Part shown: positions 4,749 through 13,043 of the stretch, one piece after another
How the letters are laid out: each line of letters starts with the position of its first letter
How positions within the stretch are numbered: position 1 is the first letter of the stretch
NCBI GenBank assembly: GCA_012112355.1
Contig: GCA_012112355.1_3028.1
Length of the DNA: 64,000 nt
Direction: 5' to 3' (one strand)
Source: a phage
Translations under genes and position numbers: made by a program
Notes under the pieces: model-generated
Told to the model about the DNA's origin: nothing
Database searches by the model: none
The model's input: the letters and a program-made list of their open reading frames with translations, nothing else

Positions 4749-5843
4749 ATGGCAATTGTTAAAGAAATAACTGCTGATTTAATTAAAAAGTCCGGTGAGA
4801 AAATTTCAGCCGGACAGAGTACTAAATCAGAAGTAGCAACTAAAACATACACTGCCCAGTTTCCAACTGGGCGTGCTAGTGGTAATGACACTACAGGGGA
4901 CTTCCAGGTAACAGATCTATATAAGAATGGATTATTATTTACTGCATACAATATGTCATCTAGGGATTCTGGAAGTCTTAGATCGATGAGATCTAACTAC
5001 TCTTCTTCATCTTCGAGTATTTTAAGTACAGCTAGAAACACTATTAGTAGTACAGTATCAAAACTATCAAATGGATTAATATCAAACAATAATTCAGGAA
5101 CAATAAGTAAAGCTCCTGTCGCAAACATTCTTTTACCGAGATCTAAATCTGACGTTGATACATCATCACATAGATTTAATGATGTTCAAGAAAGTCTTAT
5201 CAGCAGAGGTGGAGGTACTGCTACTGGTGTGTTAAGTAATATTGCTTCAACTGCAGTATTTGGGGCACTGGAAAGTATAACACAAGGTATAATGGCTGAT
5301 AATAATGAACAGATTTATACGACAGCCAGAAGTATGTATGGTGGTGCTGAGAATAGAACTAAAGTGTTTACATGGGATTTGACTCCACGTTCAACAGAAG
5401 ATTTGATGGCTATTATCAATATCTATCAATATTTTAACTATTTTTCTTATGGTGAAACGGGCAAATCTCAATATGCTGCTGAAATAAAGGGGTATTTGGA
5501 TGATTGGTATCGTTCTACGTTAATTGAACCTTTATCTCCGGAAGACGCAGCTAAAAATAAAACACTATTTGAGAAAATGACATCGAGCTTAACTAACGTT
5601 CTAGTAGTTTCAAACCCGACAATTTGGATGGTGAAAAACTTTGGTGCAACATCTAAGTTTGATGGAAAAACGGAAATATTTGGTCCATGCCAAATACAGA
5701 GCATCAGATTTGATAAAACACCTAATGGTAACTTTAACGGATTAGCTATTGCTCCAAACCTCCCTAGTACATTTACTCTCGAGATTACTATGAGAGAAAT
5801 TATCACGTTAAACCGTGCTTCTTTATATGCGGGGACTTTTTAA
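4749..5843 (+). CDS. 48: baseplate tail-tube junction protein gp48
   Basis: 364 aa, T4 order. Confidence 0.9.
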   Translation: MAIVKEITADLIKKSGEKISAGQSTKSEVATKTYTAQFPTGRASGNDTTGDFQVTDLYKNGLLFTAYNMSSRDSGSLRSMRSNYSSSSSSILSTARNTISSTVSKLSNGLISNNNSGTISKAPVANILLPRSKSDVDTSSHRFNDVQESLISRGGGTATGVLSNIASTAVFGALESITQGIMADNNEQIYTTARSMYGGAENRTKVFTWDLTPRSTEDLMAIINIYQYFNYFSYGETGKSQYAAEIKGYLDDWYRSTLIEPLSPEDAAKNKTLFEKMTSSLTNVLVVSNPTIWMVKNFGATSKFDGKTEIFGPCQIQSIRFDKTPNGNFNGLAIAPNLPSTFTLEITMREIITLNRASLYAGTF

Positions 5844-6808
5844 TGTATTCTTTAGAGGAATTTAATAATCAAGCAATAAACGCAGATTTCCAACGTAATA
5901 ATATGTTTAGCTGCGTTTTTGCAACAACTCCATCAACTAAAAGCTCTTCGTTGATAAGTTCAATTAGCAACTTTTCTTATAATAACTTGGGCCTAAATTC
6001 AGATTGGTTAGGATTAACTCAAGGTGATATTAATCAGGGAATTACTACGCTAATTACAGCTGGCACACAAAAACTGATAAGAAAATCAGGGGTTAGTAAA
6101 TATCTTATTGGTGCCATGAGTCAACGTACAGTTCAAAGTTTATTAGGCTCATTTACAGTTGGTACATATTTAATTGACTTCTTTAACATGGCATATAACT
6201 CATCTGGATTGATGATATACTCTGTAAAAATGCCAGAGAATAGATTATCCTATGAAACTGACTGGAATTATAATTCTCCTAATATTCGTATAACTGGGAG
6301 AGAATTAGACCCTTTGGTTATTTCATTTAGAATGGATTCAGAAGCTTGTAACTATCGTGCAATGCAAGACTGGGTTAACTCTGTTCAAGACCCAGTAACT
6401 GGACTGCGTGCTTTGCCGCAAGATGTCGAGGCAGATATTCAGGTTAATCTTCATTCTCGCAATGGATTGCCTCATACTGCGGTGATGTTCACCGGATGCA
6501 TTCCAATATCAGTGAGCGCTCCTGAGTTATCATATGATGGAGATAACCAAATAACTACATTTGACGTTACTTTTGCGTATAGAGTGATGCAGGCTGGAGC
6601 AGTTGATAGGCAAGCTGCGCTTGAATGGCTTGAATCTGCTGCTATAAATGGTATTCAAAGCGTTCTCGGAAATAGTGGAGGTGTTACTGGACTATCTAAT
6701 TCGCTTTCACGACTCAGTAGATTAGGGGGAACTGCAGGAAGCATTTCAAACATTAATACTATGACAGGAATTGTCAATTCGCAAAGTAAAATATTAGGAG
6801 CAATATAA
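5843..6808 (+). CDS. 54: baseplate tail-tube initiator gp54
   Basis: 321 aa, ATGA overlap with gene 48. Confidence 0.9.
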   Translation: MYSLEEFNNQAINADFQRNNMFSCVFATTPSTKSSSLISSISNFSYNNLGLNSDWLGLTQGDINQGITTLITAGTQKLIRKSGVSKYLIGAMSQRTVQSLLGSFTVGTYLIDFFNMAYNSSGLMIYSVKMPENRLSYETDWNYNSPNIRITGRELDPLVISFRMDSEACNYRAMQDWVNSVQDPVTGLRALPQDVEADIQVNLHSRNGLPHTAVMFTGCIPISVSAPELSYDGDNQITTFDVTFAYRVMQAGAVDRQAALEWLESAAINGIQSVLGNSGGVTGLSNSLSRLSRLGGTAGSISNINTMTGIVNSQSKILGAI

Positions 6809-6811
6809 CAA

Positions 6812-6831
6812 TGGGGACCTTTCGGTCCCCA
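6812..6831. terminator. bidirectional stem-loop terminator between convergent gene 54 and early ORF
   Basis: GGGGACC-TTTC-GGTCCCC hairpin flanked by A/T runs on both sides. Confidence 0.7.
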
Positions 6832-6836
6832 TATTT

Positions 6837-7127
6837 TTATTTACGGAATGAAATAAAAGCAGCAACTGAAGCAACTAAACTGTCTTCAATATAAACCTCA
6901 ATTTTTACCGGAGCTTCTGACTCAAATTTACCTGTTACTACACCTTGGAAAATACTTTCAGTCTGTTCTGGCTTTGAAAAATTTTCAGAAGGAAAAATTC
7001 CGAACTTTTTATCTGTTCCAAAAATTTTGATAAATTCATCGTAAACTGCTTCATTAAAAGCATTATCAGCAGGAATAACGCCTTCAACTACAAGTTCTTG
7101 ACCTAAAAAGCGCAAAGAAGATTTCAT
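6837..7127 (-). CDS. hypothetical early protein
   Basis: 96-aa ORF, SD GAGGA, preceded by early promoter. Confidence 0.6.
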   Translation of the reverse strand: MKSSLRFLGQELVVEGVIPADNAFNEAVYDEFIKIFGTDKKFGIFPSENFSKPEQTESIFQGVVTGKFESEAPVKIEVYIEDSLVASVAAFISFRK

Positions 7128-7154
7128 TTTGTGTTCCTCATGTTATGTCAGTAA

Positions 7155-7190
7155 GATTACTATAACACAACACGAGGAACTTGTAAACTA
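7155..7190 (-). promoter_or_regulatory. T4-type early promoter (-35 GTTTAC, -10 TATAGT)
   Basis: GTTTAC..17-18 nt..TATAGT with conserved leader CTTACTGACATAACATGAGGA; -35 overlaps stop codon of upstream gene. Confidence 0.7.
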
Positions 7191-9245
7191 CATTTTGAAC
7201 TTTTTAGACATTCCGTTGATGTTAACCAAAGAAGCCAAGATTTGAGAAACTTCGTTTTCCTCTTCTTTTGATTCTTCTACGAGGAATTGATTAAACCCAG
7301 CCATTGGACGAACTTCGCCAGTTTCCATTAGATGATCGCCATCATATACCGATTCTTCTAATTGTTCAGAAGGAGGAACGATTGTGCCTTCGATTAGATA
7401 CTTGTTATAAGCAGTTTCTTTCATCATGTACGTGCTTACTTTATTAATCTTCAACAAAATTCCACGCGGTAGAATAACTTCAGCTTCTGATGGAAATCCT
7501 GATAAATGACCTGGAACGATAACTTTGATTCGCTCAGCCCCTTTAATTACCATACCTACGCTAGTTTCAGCATCTTCATTAGCATATGCAGAATGACTGC
7601 CCATATGCATTAAATCTTCAGCATCAACAGAACCTTCTCCTTCACCAGAAAATACTGCGCCGGAATCATCTAGAGCCATATAGTTTTTACCATGCTCACC
7701 GAAGATATTTGGTTTAAGCGATGTTGATACGAAGTTCTTGAAATAAAACATTTTATTTTCAATATTATGACGTAAAGTTTTAAAGGTAACTTCTTGTCCA
7801 CGATAAAGCGTAGTTCCTGGAGGAAGAACTGAACCTTTGGCAAAGGCAGAATCCATTGTCTCGATGTGTTTAATAGCTCGTTCCATGTATTCTTCACGGG
7901 TAGAATCTGGTTTACCCAAGAGGAACGAGTTCATTTCAACATATGAATCTGCACAATAATCTTCAATTACATCAGACTCAGCCTGAGTTAATCCTTTTGG
8001 AGTTACTTCGGTGCTTGCGTATTCATATGCCCGAGCAGCAGATTCATTAATCAATTTATAAATGCTATTCATGACAAATTGAATAATAGCTACTTTTTCG
8101 TCTGGCGTGGCTTTAGAACCTTTAACTAAATCATTGATAATTTTCTTAATAACATCAAAGCTATTAGAAATATTAATGTCAGCAAGATCGCTTAAAATTT
8201 TATCAGTTTTATAATCAAAGAATTCTTTATTCTTTAAATATTCTTGAGAACCTTGATATGTTATATCGCTCTGCAGCTTGATAGATGGATCGCGTAAACG
8301 TGCATGGGCCAATGCAATATGATTTCGGAAGTTTTCTAGTTCATAATCGTTAGATTTAAAACGAGAAGCACTTCTCATACCACCGATAGCTCCTTTGCTA
8401 AAGTTTGAACCAATCTGAATAACACCAGAGTTCATTGGTCCTTCTGCTTTATATACAGGAACTTTAGATTCAAACTCTTGATATTTCTTGGCAGCGAAGC
8501 TATCACCCTGAAGTGAAGCATCGACAGTAGAATATTGAGCTTGTGCTGCTAATCGACGACTAATTTTAGTTTTCTGAATAACAGCTTGATCCGTGCGCTT
8601 ATCATTTTCTAAGGCAATAGAAGCAGCAACAGCAACAGCTTTAGGAACAGCATTACCTGTTTTAACATCTACATAAACATCACCAACCTTTGATTCAACT
8701 TTTGTGAATAACTCAGTTGAAATAGGAGGTACACCTGGAATGTCTTCTAAATTGGCATTTTTACGGTAAACCATAATATATGCATACTTTTTATCATAAT
8801 CCCAGATTTCCTTTAAAAGAACATATCGACCTGCTCCTTTAGTACGTACTAAACGGTCAGCAATAACTTGCATTTGACGAGCTGCGCCATTTGTTTTACT
8901 TTTTAGTACGCGGAATAAGCATGCATCAATTTTATACTGTTTCATTGTTTGAAGAGCAGTATCAAAAACAGCATTAATGACGCCAATTGGATTTCCACCC
9001 AAGTTTTTAAGCTTAACTAATGATAGTTTCTCATTAACACCTATCATTACGATATGCATCATTTTGTCGCCTGGCTTAACGTTTTTATTCGTATCACCGC
9101 CAGAGGTGTATGTACAAAATCTAAATCCAGGAAGCACGCTTTCTTCACCGGCTTGAATAGCAAAAATTTGTGGTATTTTATGCTTAGGATTTAAGTTAAC
9201 AACCGGCGCCGAAGCGCCGTCAAATAATTCTGTAATAAGTTCCAT
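7188..9245 (-). CDS. Alt-like ADP-ribosyltransferase paralog (second copy)
   Basis: 685 aa; N-terminus MELITELFD and internal blocks shared with adjacent alt; C-terminal Y-R, FVSTSL, EAEVILPRG motifs. Confidence 0.8.
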   Translation of the reverse strand: MELITELFDGASAPVVNLNPKHKIPQIFAIQAGEESVLPGFRFCTYTSGGDTNKNVKPGDKMMHIVMIGVNEKLSLVKLKNLGGNPIGVINAVFDTALQTMKQYKIDACLFRVLKSKTNGAARQMQVIADRLVRTKGAGRYVLLKEIWDYDKKYAYIMVYRKNANLEDIPGVPPISTELFTKVESKVGDVYVDVKTGNAVPKAVAVAASIALENDKRTDQAVIQKTKISRRLAAQAQYSTVDASLQGDSFAAKKYQEFESKVPVYKAEGPMNSGVIQIGSNFSKGAIGGMRSASRFKSNDYELENFRNHIALAHARLRDPSIKLQSDITYQGSQEYLKNKEFFDYKTDKILSDLADINISNSFDVIKKIINDLVKGSKATPDEKVAIIQFVMNSIYKLINESAARAYEYASTEVTPKGLTQAESDVIEDYCADSYVEMNSFLLGKPDSTREEYMERAIKHIETMDSAFAKGSVLPPGTTLYRGQEVTFKTLRHNIENKMFYFKNFVSTSLKPNIFGEHGKNYMALDDSGAVFSGEGEGSVDAEDLMHMGSHSAYANEDAETSVGMVIKGAERIKVIVPGHLSGFPSEAEVILPRGILLKINKVSTYMMKETAYNKYLIEGTIVPPSEQLEESVYDGDHLMETGEVRPMAGFNQFLVEESKEEENEVSQILASLVNINGMSKKFKM

Positions 9246-9248
9246 GAT

Positions 9249-11345
9249 TTATCCTTGAACGAACTTGTAAGGCATGTTTGCAATATCTATGCAAGACGCA
9301 ATAATTCCAAGAGATGATTCTACTTTTTGTTTAACATTTGATGAAACAAATGATGCAAAGTCAACTCTGTCTTCTATTTCAATATCACCTGTCATTGCAA
9401 CTACTTCACCAGTTTCCATTAGACGGTCACCGTCATAAATTACCGATTCGGTGAGTTCTTCGGTGGTCATAACTTCAGCTTGAATGAGTTTTGTATTATT
9501 AGACGTGGTTCCGTCATTATTAGAAGCATCAGTTATTTTATTAACTTTGACCATCAATCCACGTGGTAGAATAACTTCAGCTTCTGTTGCTATTCCGAGA
9601 CTTCCTGGATATACAACATTAACTTTATGAGCTCCATCAATTGCCCATCCTATTTGAACTTTAACGTATTCAGGATTTTCTTTATACGCTCTTATTTCGT
9701 TTGGATTAATAGTTATTCCTTCTTCATTTTTATCAACTGTCAATTCATTACGAGCTTCTGGTTCTAAAAGACCAATACCAGCATGTGTAATTCCAAAACG
9801 TCCAAAAATGATAGGAGTTAAAGAAGTAGATACAAAATTTCTGAAATAGAACACTTTATTTTTAACTAGTGCTTCGTATATAGGAGCAGTCATGCTTTGA
9901 GCACGATAAACTGTAATGCCTTCTGGTATACGGTCACCATTTTCAAAAGCTGAATCTAAGTTATTTATAGCAGATTCAATTTCTTTTTCACTCATTACAT
10001 CATATCGTTCTGGATTGTAACGACCCAAAAGAAGATTATTGATGTCAGTATATCCTGAACCACAATACTCTCTAATGCCGCGCTTTTGTGATGGAGTATA
10101 TTTAGAACCATCACGGGCAATAGTAATATCAATCATTGGACCTGCACCAATTCCAGAAAAACTATAAATCATTCGTTTGAGGAATTTAGTTTTTGCTGCG
10201 TTCCAGGAATTTTTAGTTATTTCTTCCCAGACTTCATCTGGCTGCCCTTTACGAGTTTTATTATGTTTATCAAGCCATTTATCTTTGTATTCTTCAAAGA
10301 ATTTATTAACAGCTGCTGCGTATTTCTCTAAACATTTTATTGAAGTAGTTGGTTCATTTTTAATCGCATTAAGAATTACATCTTTAATTTTTTCAGAAAC
10401 TTCATTAACCTCACTTTTTGAAAAGAATTTATAGTCATAATGAAGTTCATCTGCAGTTCCTTCAGCAATAATTTTTGCTGCCTTAGTTTTAGAAGCCAAT
10501 GAATTAATTCCAAGTTTCATTTCTTCTGCTTCGGGAATTAAAGGAGCGGTAGCAGGTTTATTGAAATTAGCTGCGGTAGATTCATACTTCTGGAATAATT
10601 CACTTTCAAATCTAGAAGATTCTAATGATTGACTTTGTGCAATTGCTCTACGGGAAATTTTAACTTTAACGATTACAGCTTGGTCAGAACGTTTATCATT
10701 TTCTTGCGCAATAGATGCAGCAATTGCCTCATTTTTAGTTACTTGAGCTCCAGTATCTTTATTGATATAAACATCACCGACCTTCGATTCAACTTTAGTA
10801 AAGAGCTCGGTACTAATTTCCGGAACTCCTGGAATGTCTTCTAGTGATACATTTTTGCGATGTATAAGAATATATGCATACTTTTTATCGTAATCCCAGA
10901 GTTCCTTAAGAAGGACGTATCTGCCACCTGAACGACTGCGGATAAGTCTATCAGCAATAAGTTGAATTTGACGAGCTTGACCAGCAGTTTTAGACTTAAG
11001 AATACGAAGCATACAGGCATCAATTTTATACTGACGCATCGTCTGCATCGCAACAGTAAAAACTGAATTGATGTAATTAATTGGGCTTGGACCGAGACCT
11101 TTTAATTTAGCAATTGAACCTTTAGCAGTTAATGTAAAAGGAACAATATGCATCATTTTATCGCCCATCTTTAAATCGCGATTAGTATCACCTCCAGATG
11201 TATAGGTACATAAACGAAAGCCTGGTTGTTCAATTGCGTCATCAACATGAACTGAAAAAATTTGTGGTATTTTCTTCTTTGGATTTAAGTTTGTAATCGG
11301 AAGAGTAGTATCTTCGTCAAATAATTCTGTAATGAGTTCCATCAT
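9249..11345 (-). CDS. alt: ADP-ribosyltransferase Alt (capsid-packaged, injected)
   Basis: 698 aa; N-terminus matches T4 Alt as recalled; R-S-E ART motifs; late promoter upstream. Confidence 0.9.
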   Translation of the reverse strand: MMELITELFDEDTTLPITNLNPKKKIPQIFSVHVDDAIEQPGFRLCTYTSGGDTNRDLKMGDKMMHIVPFTLTAKGSIAKLKGLGPSPINYINSVFTVAMQTMRQYKIDACMLRILKSKTAGQARQIQLIADRLIRSRSGGRYVLLKELWDYDKKYAYILIHRKNVSLEDIPGVPEISTELFTKVESKVGDVYINKDTGAQVTKNEAIAASIAQENDKRSDQAVIVKVKISRRAIAQSQSLESSRFESELFQKYESTAANFNKPATAPLIPEAEEMKLGINSLASKTKAAKIIAEGTADELHYDYKFFSKSEVNEVSEKIKDVILNAIKNEPTTSIKCLEKYAAAVNKFFEEYKDKWLDKHNKTRKGQPDEVWEEITKNSWNAAKTKFLKRMIYSFSGIGAGPMIDITIARDGSKYTPSQKRGIREYCGSGYTDINNLLLGRYNPERYDVMSEKEIESAINNLDSAFENGDRIPEGITVYRAQSMTAPIYEALVKNKVFYFRNFVSTSLTPIIFGRFGITHAGIGLLEPEARNELTVDKNEEGITINPNEIRAYKENPEYVKVQIGWAIDGAHKVNVVYPGSLGIATEAEVILPRGLMVKVNKITDASNNDGTTSNNTKLIQAEVMTTEELTESVIYDGDRLMETGEVVAMTGDIEIEDRVDFASFVSSNVKQKVESSLGIIASCIDIANMPYKFVQG

Positions 11346-11365: not shown

Positions 11366-11373
11366 TATTTATA
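11366..11373 (-). promoter_or_regulatory. T4 late promoter TATAAATA for alt
   Basis: TATAAATA on minus strand about 20 nt upstream of alt ATG. Confidence 0.65.
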
Positions 11374-11378
11374 AAATT

Positions 11379-11396
11379 AAAGGCCCGAAGGCCTTT
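11379..11396 (-). terminator. stem-loop (CGAA tetraloop) terminator / RNA stability hairpin
   Basis: AAGGCC-CGAA-GGCCTT between small ORF and alt promoter. Confidence 0.5.
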
Positions 11397-11583
11397 AATA
11401 ATCTATTGGTAAGAGAGTACGATATATTTCAAACTTTGGACCTTTTTCATAGGCATCAAATGTTTCTGTGAATTTATTATAAGCATATGCATCTATAAAT
11501 TCAATCATAATTTGTGATACAGAAGTAGAAACATCTCCACCTTCTTTTTGAGCAACGACAATTGTTTCTAAGTAAGCTTTCAT
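11395..11583 (-). CDS. hypothetical protein
   Basis: 62-aa ORF, ATGA overlap with gene 30 stop. Confidence 0.55.
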   Translation of the reverse strand: MKAYLETIVVAQKEGGDVSTSVSQIMIEFIDAYAYNKFTETFDAYEKGPKFEIYRTLLPIDY

Positions 11584-13043
11584 AGACCAGTTACCTCATG
11601 AAAATCACCAAATACATCCTCGAATGTATTAGCTTTAGTTTTATCTTCACGTAAACGAATCGCAATTGGAAGAAATAATTTTACGTAATCAGTGCGGCCA
11701 TCAGATTTTAGCCAACCGTTGCATTCGCACTCTAGAATTTTTCCAATATAATAATTTTGGTTTTCCATAATGCGAGTACGGTCAAGTTCATGTGATTTTA
11801 CACCGGCTTTATCTTTTAAGCCTGAACCAGCATTTACTTTAATTTTTCCACACTCTGATTCAAGAATAAATCCACCTGCTTTAGTAGGGTCTTTACGGTG
11901 AGGATAAATTCCTACAATTTTTAAATCAACATCAATTACTTCTTTAAATTTATAGAGATTTTTTGAACGAGCATTTTCCCACAATCCATCGGTATTTTTG
12001 AGAATAATACCTTCAAGACCTTGGTCAATATATTTTTTATAAATTACCTTAGCTTCATCTAGGTTATTTACTACCTGGTTTTCAATTAAAATTACTTTAT
12101 CATATCCTGATGTCATTTGTTCTAGTTTAGAAAAACGTACATCATATTTTAAACGAAACGCCGGAAGACCGTATATTTCTACCAACGGGACATAATCCCA
12201 GACCTGAAACTTCATGCATTTGGCTTCTTTTTCGGAAATGGTTCCTTTTAAGGATTTATTGGCGATTCCATTAGAAGCAGTACGAGATTCCGCTACTTCG
12301 GCGAATTCTTTAGCTTTACTAATTTCAGGATAAGCATCAAAAAGAAAATCTAGGCCTTCTGGTTCCTTTTTAACTTGCTCATGGTATACCAATTCGCCAT
12401 CAATTAACACACCTTCTGGATGAATCTGGCGGGCTTCAGCAGTCATTTTGATTAATTCTTCCTTAAGAAGATCTAATCCTAGATATTCATTACCAGCTCG
12501 TGATAAAAGACGAACATCATCTAATTCATCGCCTCTAACTTCAGCAAAACACCGGGCTCCATCTGCTTTTAACTGTGCAAAGGCTGGAAATTTGATATTC
12601 TTACTAATGCCCTTTTCATCATAAGAACTTGCCAGCATTTGAGGTTGTTCAGGAATTAAACCTGGCCAAACTTTGTTTGCAATAGATACTGAAGCACCGC
12701 ATTCAAGGTCTCGCATCATCACTCGACGCAAAACTTCAACATCATCCTTTTTACCATCGGTGATATATCCAGTCAATTCCTCAATTGCAGCATTTCCGGT
12801 CAATTTCCGAGTAGCTAACGTGAATTCAATGAAGTCAAGCATATCGGTAAGAGTCAACATTCCAAAACTCTGGGTAGCAATACCCGGTTTAGGCCATTTC
12901 TTGATATAATACTGTAACCCACGAGAATAAGTCAGACGATATACTCGTTTAAGCAATTCATTATCTTTATTCTTTTCAAGAATTGCTTGCTTCTGCTTAG
13001 TTGAACCAATAGATGCTATTTCGTTTAGAATTTTAAGAATCAT
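11580..13043 (-). CDS. 30: ATP-dependent DNA ligase gp30
   Basis: 487 aa as T4 ligase; adenylation motif KADGARC. Confidence 0.95.
   Translation of the reverse strand: MILKILNEIASIGSTKQKQAILEKNKDNELLKRVYRLTYSRGLQYYIKKWPKPGIATQSFGMLTLTDMLDFIEFTLATRKLTGNAAIEELTGYITDGKKDDVEVLRRVMMRDLECGASVSIANKVWPGLIPEQPQMLASSYDEKGISKNIKFPAFAQLKADGARCFAEVRGDELDDVRLLSRAGNEYLGLDLLKEELIKMTAEARQIHPEGVLIDGELVYHEQVKKEPEGLDFLFDAYPEISKAKEFAEVAESRTASNGIANKSLKGTISEKEAKCMKFQVWDYVPLVEIYGLPAFRLKYDVRFSKLEQMTSGYDKVILIENQVVNNLDEAKVIYKKYIDQGLEGIILKNTDGLWENARSKNLYKFKEVIDVDLKIVGIYPHRKDPTKAGGFILESECGKIKVNAGSGLKDKAGVKSHELDRTRIMENQNYYIGKILECECNGWLKSDGRTDYVKLFLPIAIRLREDKTKANTFEDVFGDFHEVTGL

Follow-up and report, generated by a model that had tools for sequence, protein, structure and literature searches.

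Why should a T-even phage carry, side by side, two genes for an enzyme that the textbook phage T4 encodes with a single full-length one? The question is raised by a 64,000-nucleotide stretch of phage DNA (hereafter the window; NCBI GenBank assembly GCA_012112355.1, contig GCA_012112355.1_3028.1), in which a first-pass annotation, made without database searches, had noticed two adjacent minus-strand open reading frames (ORFs) and taken them for diverged paralogs of the injected ADP-ribosyltransferase (ART) Alt. We name the upstream gene AltA and the downstream gene AltB. Alignment, Pfam and PHROG matches, predicted fold and synteny with T4 alt support the conclusion that they are a tandem pair of diverged Alt-like ART genes behind one late promoter. 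We further consider it probable that this pair is a two-gene late operon for two head-delivered Alt enzymes, each with its own set of targets. The parts of the two genes are as follows.

9249-11342, minus strand: AltA, upstream Alt-family ADP-ribosyltransferase (predicted), 697 residues plus stop (698 residues if the first ATG, at 11345, is used)
11325-11342, minus strand: AltA propeptide, residues 1-6
10629-11324, minus strand: AltA N domain, residues 7-238
10107-10628, minus strand: AltA variable helical region, residues ~239-412
9465-10106, minus strand: AltA ART core, residues ~413-626
9822-9830 (S505-T-S507) and 9558-9584 (stretch with E587-A-E589), minus strand: AltA predicted catalytic residues, together with VYR480
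within 9444-9458, minus strand: AltA gp21-type cleavage site L-T-E632, the C-terminal propeptide running from it to 9252
7188-9245, minus strand: AltB, downstream Alt-family ADP-ribosyltransferase (predicted), 685 residues plus stop
9228-9245, minus strand: AltB propeptide, residues 1-6
8532-9227, minus strand: AltB N domain, residues 7-238
8010-8531, minus strand: AltB variable helical region, residues ~239-412
7368-8009, minus strand: AltB ART core, residues ~413-626
7719-7727 (S507-T-S509) and 7461-7487 (stretch with E587-A-E589), minus strand: AltB predicted catalytic residues, together with LYR482
within 7350-7364, minus strand: AltB gp21-type cleavage site L-E-E631, the C-terminal propeptide running from it to 7191

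Both ORFs are intact, and their description as clear paralogs is borne out by BLASTP, which aligns them with 41% identity over 719 columns (E = 1e-157) and recovers every shared sequence block that had been quoted in its favor. Each product matches the Pfam family PF03496 (ADPrib_exo_Tox) far above its gathering cut-off of 23.4 bits (AltA 128.9 bits, E = 1.9e-37; AltB 72.8 bits, E = 3.1e-20), and each is covered end-to-end by phrog_802 (E = 4e-272 and 3e-255, respectively). A precomputed Pfam list additionally places PF26846 (Tevenvirinae_ADPRT) alongside PF03496 on the protein clusters of AltB (P0001) and AltA (P0070); a local Pfam search of the two proteins returned no PF26846, and NCBIfam gave no match. 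The catalytic and NAD-site motifs, namely the arginine, the S-T-S and the E-x-E, are all kept in both proteins, whose lengths of 697 and 685 residues lie within the ~620-710 of the Tevenvirinae Alt family. The residues R482, S507, S509, E587 and E589 of AltB are invariant in a 22-sequence alignment of the family, and the three motifs occur in all 18 full-length Alt proteins compared, two of which show a conservative change in the middle of the S-T-S (S-A-S and S-C-S). Aligned with T4 Alt, to which it is 41-44% identical overall, AltB lacks none of the catalytic arginine, serine and glutamate residues.

A model of AltB built with AlphaFold2 from the 22-sequence alignment has a mean predicted local distance difference test score (pLDDT) of 74, with values of 80-92 through much of the helical and ART part and disorder limited to the two propeptides and short loops. 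When this model was compared with the PDB using Foldseek, only ARTs of the R-S-E type were recovered at probability 1.0 (Vis, Certhrax, CDTa, C3bot, VIP2 and iota Ia; E = 5e-7 to 2e-4), with template-modeling scores of 0.53-0.65 relative to single-domain ARTs (Vis, C3 and 8za7). A profile search of the PDB with the AltB family found the same group and matched it over the ART part only; a sequence search with AltB alone found no match there. The predicted structure of AltB, the one protein modeled, has the ART fold. Taken together, AltA and AltB are predicted to belong to the Alt family of mono-ADP-ribosyltransferases, within the R-S-ExE, C3/VIP2-like clade. Arginine is the usual target residue of ExE enzymes in this clade, and the presence of ExE rather than QxE in both proteins fits arginine specificity. 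The toxins C3, VIP2, iota Ia, CDTa, Certhrax and Vis share the catalytic fold and the R/STS/(E/Q)xE motifs with Alt, but identity to them is only 14-20%, and Alt adds an insert of ~50 residues between the STS and the ExE, a helical region of ~170 residues and an N domain of ~230 residues. Their delivery also differs: Alt travels in the phage head, whereas toxins of the C3/VIP2 type rely on secretion or a binary-toxin pore.

Divergence between the two paralogs is concentrated where the first-pass annotation had placed it. The N-terminal 240 residues are 55-82% identical by stretch (67% for the N domain overall), whereas alignment columns 241-440 are 17-27% identical, the ART cores 33%, and the insert between STS and ExE 9-17%. 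At the level of sequence, the ~170-residue helical region and the ~50-residue insert appear essentially unrelated between AltA and AltB. A further difference concerns the position three residues before the ExE, where the three different B-type sequences have an aromatic residue (F, Y, Y) and the A-type has I, P, H or Q; a profile alignment places this position opposite the tyrosine of the ADP-ribosylating turn-turn (ARTT) loop of C3. In C3- and iota-type toxins the ARTT loop contributes to substrate recognition. Because the helical region and the insert are unrelated and this ARTT residue is class-specific, it is plausible that AltA and AltB have different target spectra.

Both genes are under purifying selection, which is strong for AltB: compared with five orthologs at synonymous divergences (dS) of 0.11-0.20, its ratio of nonsynonymous to synonymous divergence (dN/dS) is 0.03-0.05, and 0.02-0.06 in the ART core. 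In T4, Alt is an internal head protein of ~40 copies that is injected, and the head protease gp21 trims it after ITE-6 and, as mapped by mass spectrometry, after LTE-619 (PMC5694885, PMC9026906). The motif (L/I)-x-E stands at both homologous sites in 17 of the 18 full-length members, the N-terminus of phage JSE being ambiguous; AltA has I-T-E6 and L-T-E632, and AltB I-T-E6 and L-E-E631|S. In AltB, as across the family, the C-terminal site is followed by a conserved YDGDxLMETGE propeptide or tail. By analogy with T4 Alt, these motifs support, short of proving it, that AltB would be processed and packaged in the same manner.

The transcription signals around the pair are listed below.

11366..11373, minus strand: late promoter box TATAAATA of the T4 type, 23 nt upstream of the AltA ATG
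9252..9256, minus strand: AltB Shine-Dalgarno AAGGA, within the last AltA codons and 6 nt before the AltB ATG, read from the sequence
11379..11396, minus strand: hairpin AAAGGCC-TTCG-GGCCTTT followed by AATTTT, directly after the alt.1 stop, read from the sequence
6811..6832, both strands: bidirectional hairpin terminator between alt.-3 and gene 54, from a terminator scan

The two genes lie 3 nt apart, as had been noted: the AltA stop TAA (9251-9249) is followed by ATC and then by the AltB ATG (9245-9243). That both begin with MELITELFD holds as it stands for AltB (ORF 7188..9245 on the minus strand), while the AltA ORF (9249..11345, minus strand) begins MMELITELFD. Its true start is likely the second ATG, at 11342, which gives 697 residues and not the 698 first reported, because T4 Alt and all annotated homologs begin MELITE, because a GAGG Shine-Dalgarno sits 5 nt from this ATG, and because the six-residue propeptide mapped in T4 ends at ITE-6. 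Similarly, the claim of a late promoter before the upstream copy only was right about the box at 11373-11366, but a second exact TATAAATA lies inside AltA at 9969-9962 (minus strand), 717 nt before the AltB ATG, where it is encoded by the codons A-I-N-N. We considered this internal octamer as a dedicated late promoter of AltB and rejected it as coincidental, since it is absent from L004 and L005, two loci with a 99%-identical AltB and 4 kb of upstream flank, and since such octamers occur in the window at chance level (10, against 8.7 expected). Those two loci do have TATAAATA ~2.1 kb 5' of AltB, consistent with the site of the AltA promoter. An exact TATAAATA is found ~30 nt 5' of the first alt gene in T4, T2, SHFML-11, SP18, KPV15 and the loci L001 and L009; none precedes the first alt gene of Dhakavirus dhaeg or of the Mosigvirus locus. 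On the coding strand of AltA, AltB and alt.-3 the terminator scan found no terminator-like site before 6832-6811, and this hairpin is likely the 3' end of the late alt transcript. The simplest reading of these signals is that AltA and AltB would be carried on one late transcript.

At the 5' side, the hairpin at 11379..11396 looks like a terminator that would end upstream transcription just before the alt late promoter; a consensus terminator scan did not pick it up. This GC-rich hairpin with its T-run abuts the promoter box (11366-11373), so that the boundary between alt.1 and alt has the form of a compact terminator-promoter junction.

To place the pair among its relatives we compared identities region by region and computed bootstrapped neighbor-joining trees for the N domain and the ART core separately. 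AltA and T4 Alt are 98-100% identical over residues 1-240, 94% in the C-terminal propeptide and 88-100% over the last 100 alignment columns, but only ~30% (11-35% by stretch) in the helical region, residues 255-410, and 64% (30-81% by stretch) in the ART core; over window positions 10535-10107 the DNA cannot be aligned. The dS between the two genes is 0.14-0.15 in the flanks and 2.0 and 1.1 in two central parts, a contrast that points to recombination rather than to local fast evolution. Strict orthology, in the sense of collinear high identity over the whole gene, does not hold, and AltA is best described as an apparently recombinant allele relative to T4 Alt, a positional ortholog with a different cassette. 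In the GenBank phage collection, 316 records contain the window-type AltA core at no less than 95% identity, and 160 contain the T4-type core at that level. Both types co-occur with an intact AltB (the window; SHFML-11) and with the remnant of AltB described below (slur08; T4).

In the N-domain tree (residues 7-238) every A and B copy from Tequatrovirus falls into a single clade with 100% bootstrap support; the N domains of A and B are 67% identical in the window and 65% in dhaeg, and 42-47% across genera. The ART-core tree instead recovers an A-type clade (window A, T4, L009 A, dhaeg A and Mosigvirus) and a B-type clade (window B, L009 B and dhaeg B), each at 100%, and the core of window AltA is sister to that of Dhakavirus AltA (100%; 85% identity) and not to that of T4 Alt. 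This conflict between the two trees suggests that in an Alt protein an N-terminal module specific to the genus is joined to an effector cassette that is older and exchangeable, with junctions near residues 240 and 625. A recent gene conversion between the N domains of A and B is excluded by their dS of 1.4-2.0 and a longest identical run of 21 nt. An old conversion, that is homogenization, and replacement of the cassettes after separate duplications fit the data equally well.

By sequence, the N domain is nearly always found alongside ART: an exhaustive sequence search of 1.84 billion representatives returned only 69 proteins, almost all of 600-712 residues with the domain at the N-terminus, and PF03496 is present in 56 of 60 scanned representatives. 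A separate protein search with the N domain alone returned only 5 fragments. Shorter proteins with an Alt N domain occur in the phages Melville (Salmonella; 323 residues), HY03 (Escherichia; 484), CF1 (Citrobacter; 392) and Henu6 (Acinetobacter; a "split" protein of 472), and in the clusters P0121 and P0122; for P0121 and for Melville/P0122 the precomputed Pfam list gives no ART domain. Such proteins could come from split genes, be products of further decay or consist of the N domain only. A Foldseek search of BFVD with the AltB N-domain model gave, beyond Alt homologs, matches with E-values of 1e-4 to 1e-10, many with a high root-mean-square deviation. They fall on large uncharacterized proteins of other myoviruses, some labeled Zeta-toxin, deaminase or ParB/Srx. 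Significant though loose matches are to N-terminal parts of such proteins from Erwinia phage phiEa2809, Dickeya phage RC-2014, Shigella phage MK-13, Vibrio phages VP-1 and Kuja, Aeromonas phage phiA8-29 and Agrobacterium phage Atu_ph07, one of which is annotated with a Zeta-toxin domain. As a weaker lead that depends on modeled structure, the fold may stand at the N-terminus of large proteins with other cargo in Ackermannviridae-like and jumbo phages, and might be a general head-delivery or ejection-protein module.

The proposed survey of one versus two copies among T-even genomes was taken up with phage records. In GenBank, 412 phage records match the 4.8-kb locus at 95-99% identity, 344 of them holding at least 80% of it in one piece, and AltB is present at 95% identity or more in 397 records, T2 included; a scan of IMG/VR for AltB relatives gave only 5 loci. 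The two-copy state is the majority in Tequatrovirus (~75% of genomes), and T4, which retains a remnant of the second copy, has a minority deletion allele. This remnant consists of alt.-1 and alt.-2, which occupy the same position as AltB after one full alt gene and which the T4 record calls "an old duplication of the first part of gene alt". They translate near-exactly to AltB residues 1-54, where the match is exact, and, after a frameshift, 55-116, whereupon the sequence jumps to the last 20 nt of AltB. In the window the two ends of the missing segment fall on a direct repeat.

8898..8906, minus strand: 9-bp direct repeat CTAAAAAGT, upstream copy, left end of the T4-type deletion
7199..7207, minus strand: 9-bp direct repeat CTAAAAAGT, downstream copy, right end of the T4-type deletion

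Since the T4 junction lies at this repeat, the loss is a 1,699-bp deletion between CTAAAAAGT microhomologies, and alt.-1/alt.-2 is an AltB pseudogene that decayed through this deletion and one frameshift. The older view of a partial alt duplication is rejected: the two short ORFs come from deletion of a full-length AltB. PHROGs 23015 and 15247, whose profiles of 61 and 67 positions fit the sizes and positions of T4 alt.-1/alt.-2, match AltB with E-values of 2e-40 and 3e-38, against 1e-21 and 2e-19 for AltA. A 91-nt probe laid over the T4 junction is fully covered in 91 phage records, and ~395 more match one or both of its halves separately, in agreement with the 397 records of intact AltB. In slur08 the T4-type junction lies beside a window-type AltA, and the remnant has acquired an extra stop codon. 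T4 and ~90 other phages lost AltB through one shared deletion; AltB is dispensable in some settings.

Across relatives the number of Alt genes at the locus varies from 1 to 3. T4 Alt (682 residues; NAD+--arginine ADP-ribosyltransferase) shares with the window pair the locus, the late promoter and the architecture of propeptide, N domain, helical region, R-S-ExE ART core and C-terminal propeptide, but its effector cassette differs from both (ART core 64% identical to that of AltA and 33% to that of AltB). Dhakavirus dhaeg has a pair of 686 and 707 residues that carry A-type and B-type cassettes as in the window; Gaprivervirus SP18, a Shigella phage, has annotated altA and altB genes; L009, a diverged metagenomic Tequatrovirus-like contig, encodes 697 and 694 residues; and Krischvirus JSE combines alt with an ART of 274 residues. 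In Biquartavirus 44RR a full-length duplication (ORF187c and alt) was noted by Nolan et al. 2006 (PMC1524935). Three tandem Alt genes are present in the Escherichia phage LHE83 (Dhakavirus; L019), at 5254-9849 and across the record origin, of which two encode 694 and 681 residues and the third begins MENLNEVFDKSDKK. Mosigvirus Shf125875 and Jiaodavirus KPV15 have a single copy. The N domains of the tandem paralogs of SP18, dhaeg, LHE83 and 44RR group by genus and not by copy.

Under the explanation that we favor, AltA and AltB would each enter the prohead core by means of the conserved N-terminal region, gp21 would trim each after the (L/I)-x-E at residue 6 and at ~55-65 residues from the C-terminus, and the trimmed enzymes would sit in the DNA-filled head and be injected with the DNA, as T4 Alt is. 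Each would then ADP-ribosylate its own set of host proteins. The helical region and ART core (~240-625) would act together as an effector cassette open to exchange, of which A and B are old separate lineages with probably different target spectra, and the N-terminal ~240 residues and the C-terminal propeptide would be phage-specific delivery parts. Different targets fit the separation of the cassettes into old lineages with 100% bootstrap, both under purifying selection. A comparable plan is seen in IPI, IPII and IPIII, internal proteins of T4 in which an N-terminal targeting part that gp21 cuts after (L/I)-x-E precedes a variable injected cargo. Their targeting sequence is ~10 residues long, whereas Alt has a 6-residue propeptide, a conserved domain of 230 residues and a C-terminal propeptide. 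Like Alt, these proteins are non-essential and polymorphic among T-even phages (PMC9026906).

Several points weigh against this explanation. The case that AltB is in virions, cleaved, injected and active is made from motif conservation and the analogy with T4 Alt, and a literature search (alt.-2, AltA/AltB, virion proteomics, T2/T6) found no experimental work on the second Alt copy and no virion proteomics for a two-copy phage. For distinct targets, the argument draws on sequence divergence and a single position of the ARTT loop. In the most divergent region, which is the insert between STS and ExE, the AltB model has only a moderate pLDDT of 56-75. Finally, the loss of AltB in T4 and 90 further records indicates that it is not needed on common laboratory hosts, which fits redundancy as well. 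Known substrates of T4 Alt (as cited in PMC9503650, PMC5512222 and PMC10286901) include the RNA polymerase alpha subunit, translation factors and the MazF toxin; modification of Arg265 of the alpha subunit and of the other T4 Alt targets is established only for the T4 Alt cassette.

A broader version, which we put forward tentatively and regard as rather doubtful, sees in the locus a modular injected-effector system: the delivery part (the N-terminal ~240 residues and the two propeptides) would carry interchangeable helical-ART cassettes that recombine between T-even genera, like polymorphic toxins, and the B-type would be a distinct effector, possibly a counter-defense one in the way that T4 Alt inactivates MazF. 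In that event the presence or absence of AltB would contribute to T2/T4/T6-like differences in host range or defense sensitivity.

It is unlikely that the copies are instead redundant, with AltB only raising the dose of injected enzyme or standing by as a back-up for a shared set of targets, namely RNA polymerase alpha and the remaining Alt substrates. The likeness of architecture, catalytic motifs and processing sites would suit redundancy, as would the loss of AltB without obvious penalty in T4 and 90 other records and the non-essential nature of alt itself in T4 (PMC9026906). However, the ART cores are only 33% and the helical region 17% identical, each cassette lineage is under purifying selection, and the two have been kept as distinct clades over at least two genera with 100% bootstrap support and a class-specific ARTT-loop difference. 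Redundant copies would be expected to be homogenized or lost, not kept diverged in ~75% of genomes. Still less credit is due to the notion that AltB is made late but not injected, acting in the producing cell or as a prohead core or scaffold component with its ART activity secondary: AltB keeps both gp21 motifs and the C-terminal propeptide at the positions mapped in T4 Alt by mass spectrometry, its N domain is 67% identical to the packaged AltA/T4 Alt type, and T4 heads assemble normally without it. The view of AltB as a paralog that is decaying or has lost catalysis, headed for the T4 state, is already disfavored and very improbable, for although T4 and 90 other records hold a frameshifted, deleted remnant and the Pfam score of AltB is below that of AltA (72.8 versus 128.9 bits), the 685-residue ORF is intact with Arg, STS and ExE in place and its key residues invariant in the family, dN/dS is 0.03-0.05 (ART core 0.02-0.06), orthologs of at least 95% identity occur in 397 records, and B-type orthologs exist in Dhakavirus.

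The tandem pair as such was already known: annotated T-even genomes, hundreds of them public, name it alt_1/alt_2 or "Alt-like RNA polymerase ADP-ribosyltransferase (x2)", and both the T4 annotation and Nolan et al. 2006 remark upon the duplication. The present analysis adds the exact origin of T4 alt.-1/alt.-2, the census of ~400 intact against 91 deleted AltB genes, the purifying selection on AltB and the domain-level mosaic structure. The genes are of a known kind and the pair would not surprise a specialist. T4 Alt is the textbook case of an injected phage enzyme, yet T4 is atypical, as about three quarters of sequenced Tequatroviruses, T2 among them, encode and perhaps also inject two different Alt-type enzymes, and some relatives encode three. 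Host take-over by ADP-ribosylation is known from one cassette of one phage, and if the targets of A and B differ, T4-based models miss part of the earliest host modification by most T-even phages, including many in development as therapeutics against E. coli and Shigella. Natural comparisons are available through the T4-type deletion and the mosaic alleles, for example T4 with SHFML-11 or slur08 with the phage of the window.

The window is part of a Tequatrovirus genome, and the neighboring genes, identified from the ORF list, Pfam and homologous records, are in the order of annotated T-even genomes.

11580-13043, minus strand: DNA ligase gp30
11395-11583, minus strand: alt.1, Pfam Phage_blade
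6837-7127, minus strand: alt.-3, 96 residues, DUF5498, phrog_1739
5843-6808, plus strand: gene 54 (baseplate)
4749-5843, plus strand: gene 48 (baseplate)

AltA and AltB have gene 30 (ligase) and alt.1 on one side and alt.-3 and gene 54 on the other, and they run on the opposite strand from the baseplate genes; the gene order of the alt locus is identical in T4, T2, Dhakavirus, Gaprivervirus, Mosigvirus and Jiaodavirus. The alt.1 product, of 62 residues, matches the recently created family PF24647 "Phage_blade" (E = 7.5e-29), and the gene overlaps the ligase stop codon by 4 nt. As to alt.-3, mutations that extend the C-terminus of its T4 homolog keep ClpP from degrading CmdA and thereby let T4 escape the CmdTAC defense system (Vassallo et al. 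2024, bioRxiv 10.1101/2024.02.24.581662); this paper concerns the neighbor alt.-3 and not the ARTs.

The gap between the AltB stop and the alt.-3 start (7133-7187) contains a sigma-70/T4-early-like promoter, TTTACA-17 nt-TATAGT with an upstream TG, at 7187..7159 (minus strand). Overlapping it is an RNA hairpin at 7180-7133 (-27.5 kcal/mol, z = -5.8, none of 200 shuffles as stable), the 3' arm of which contains the alt.-3 Shine-Dalgarno GAGGAA. Read-through alt transcripts have both arms, so the ribosome-binding site of alt.-3 would be hidden in them, whereas a transcript from the promoter at 7187..7159 lacks the 5' arm and would not have the site hidden by the hairpin. This arrangement suggests that alt.-3 may be translated from an early transcript of its own and not from the late alt mRNA.

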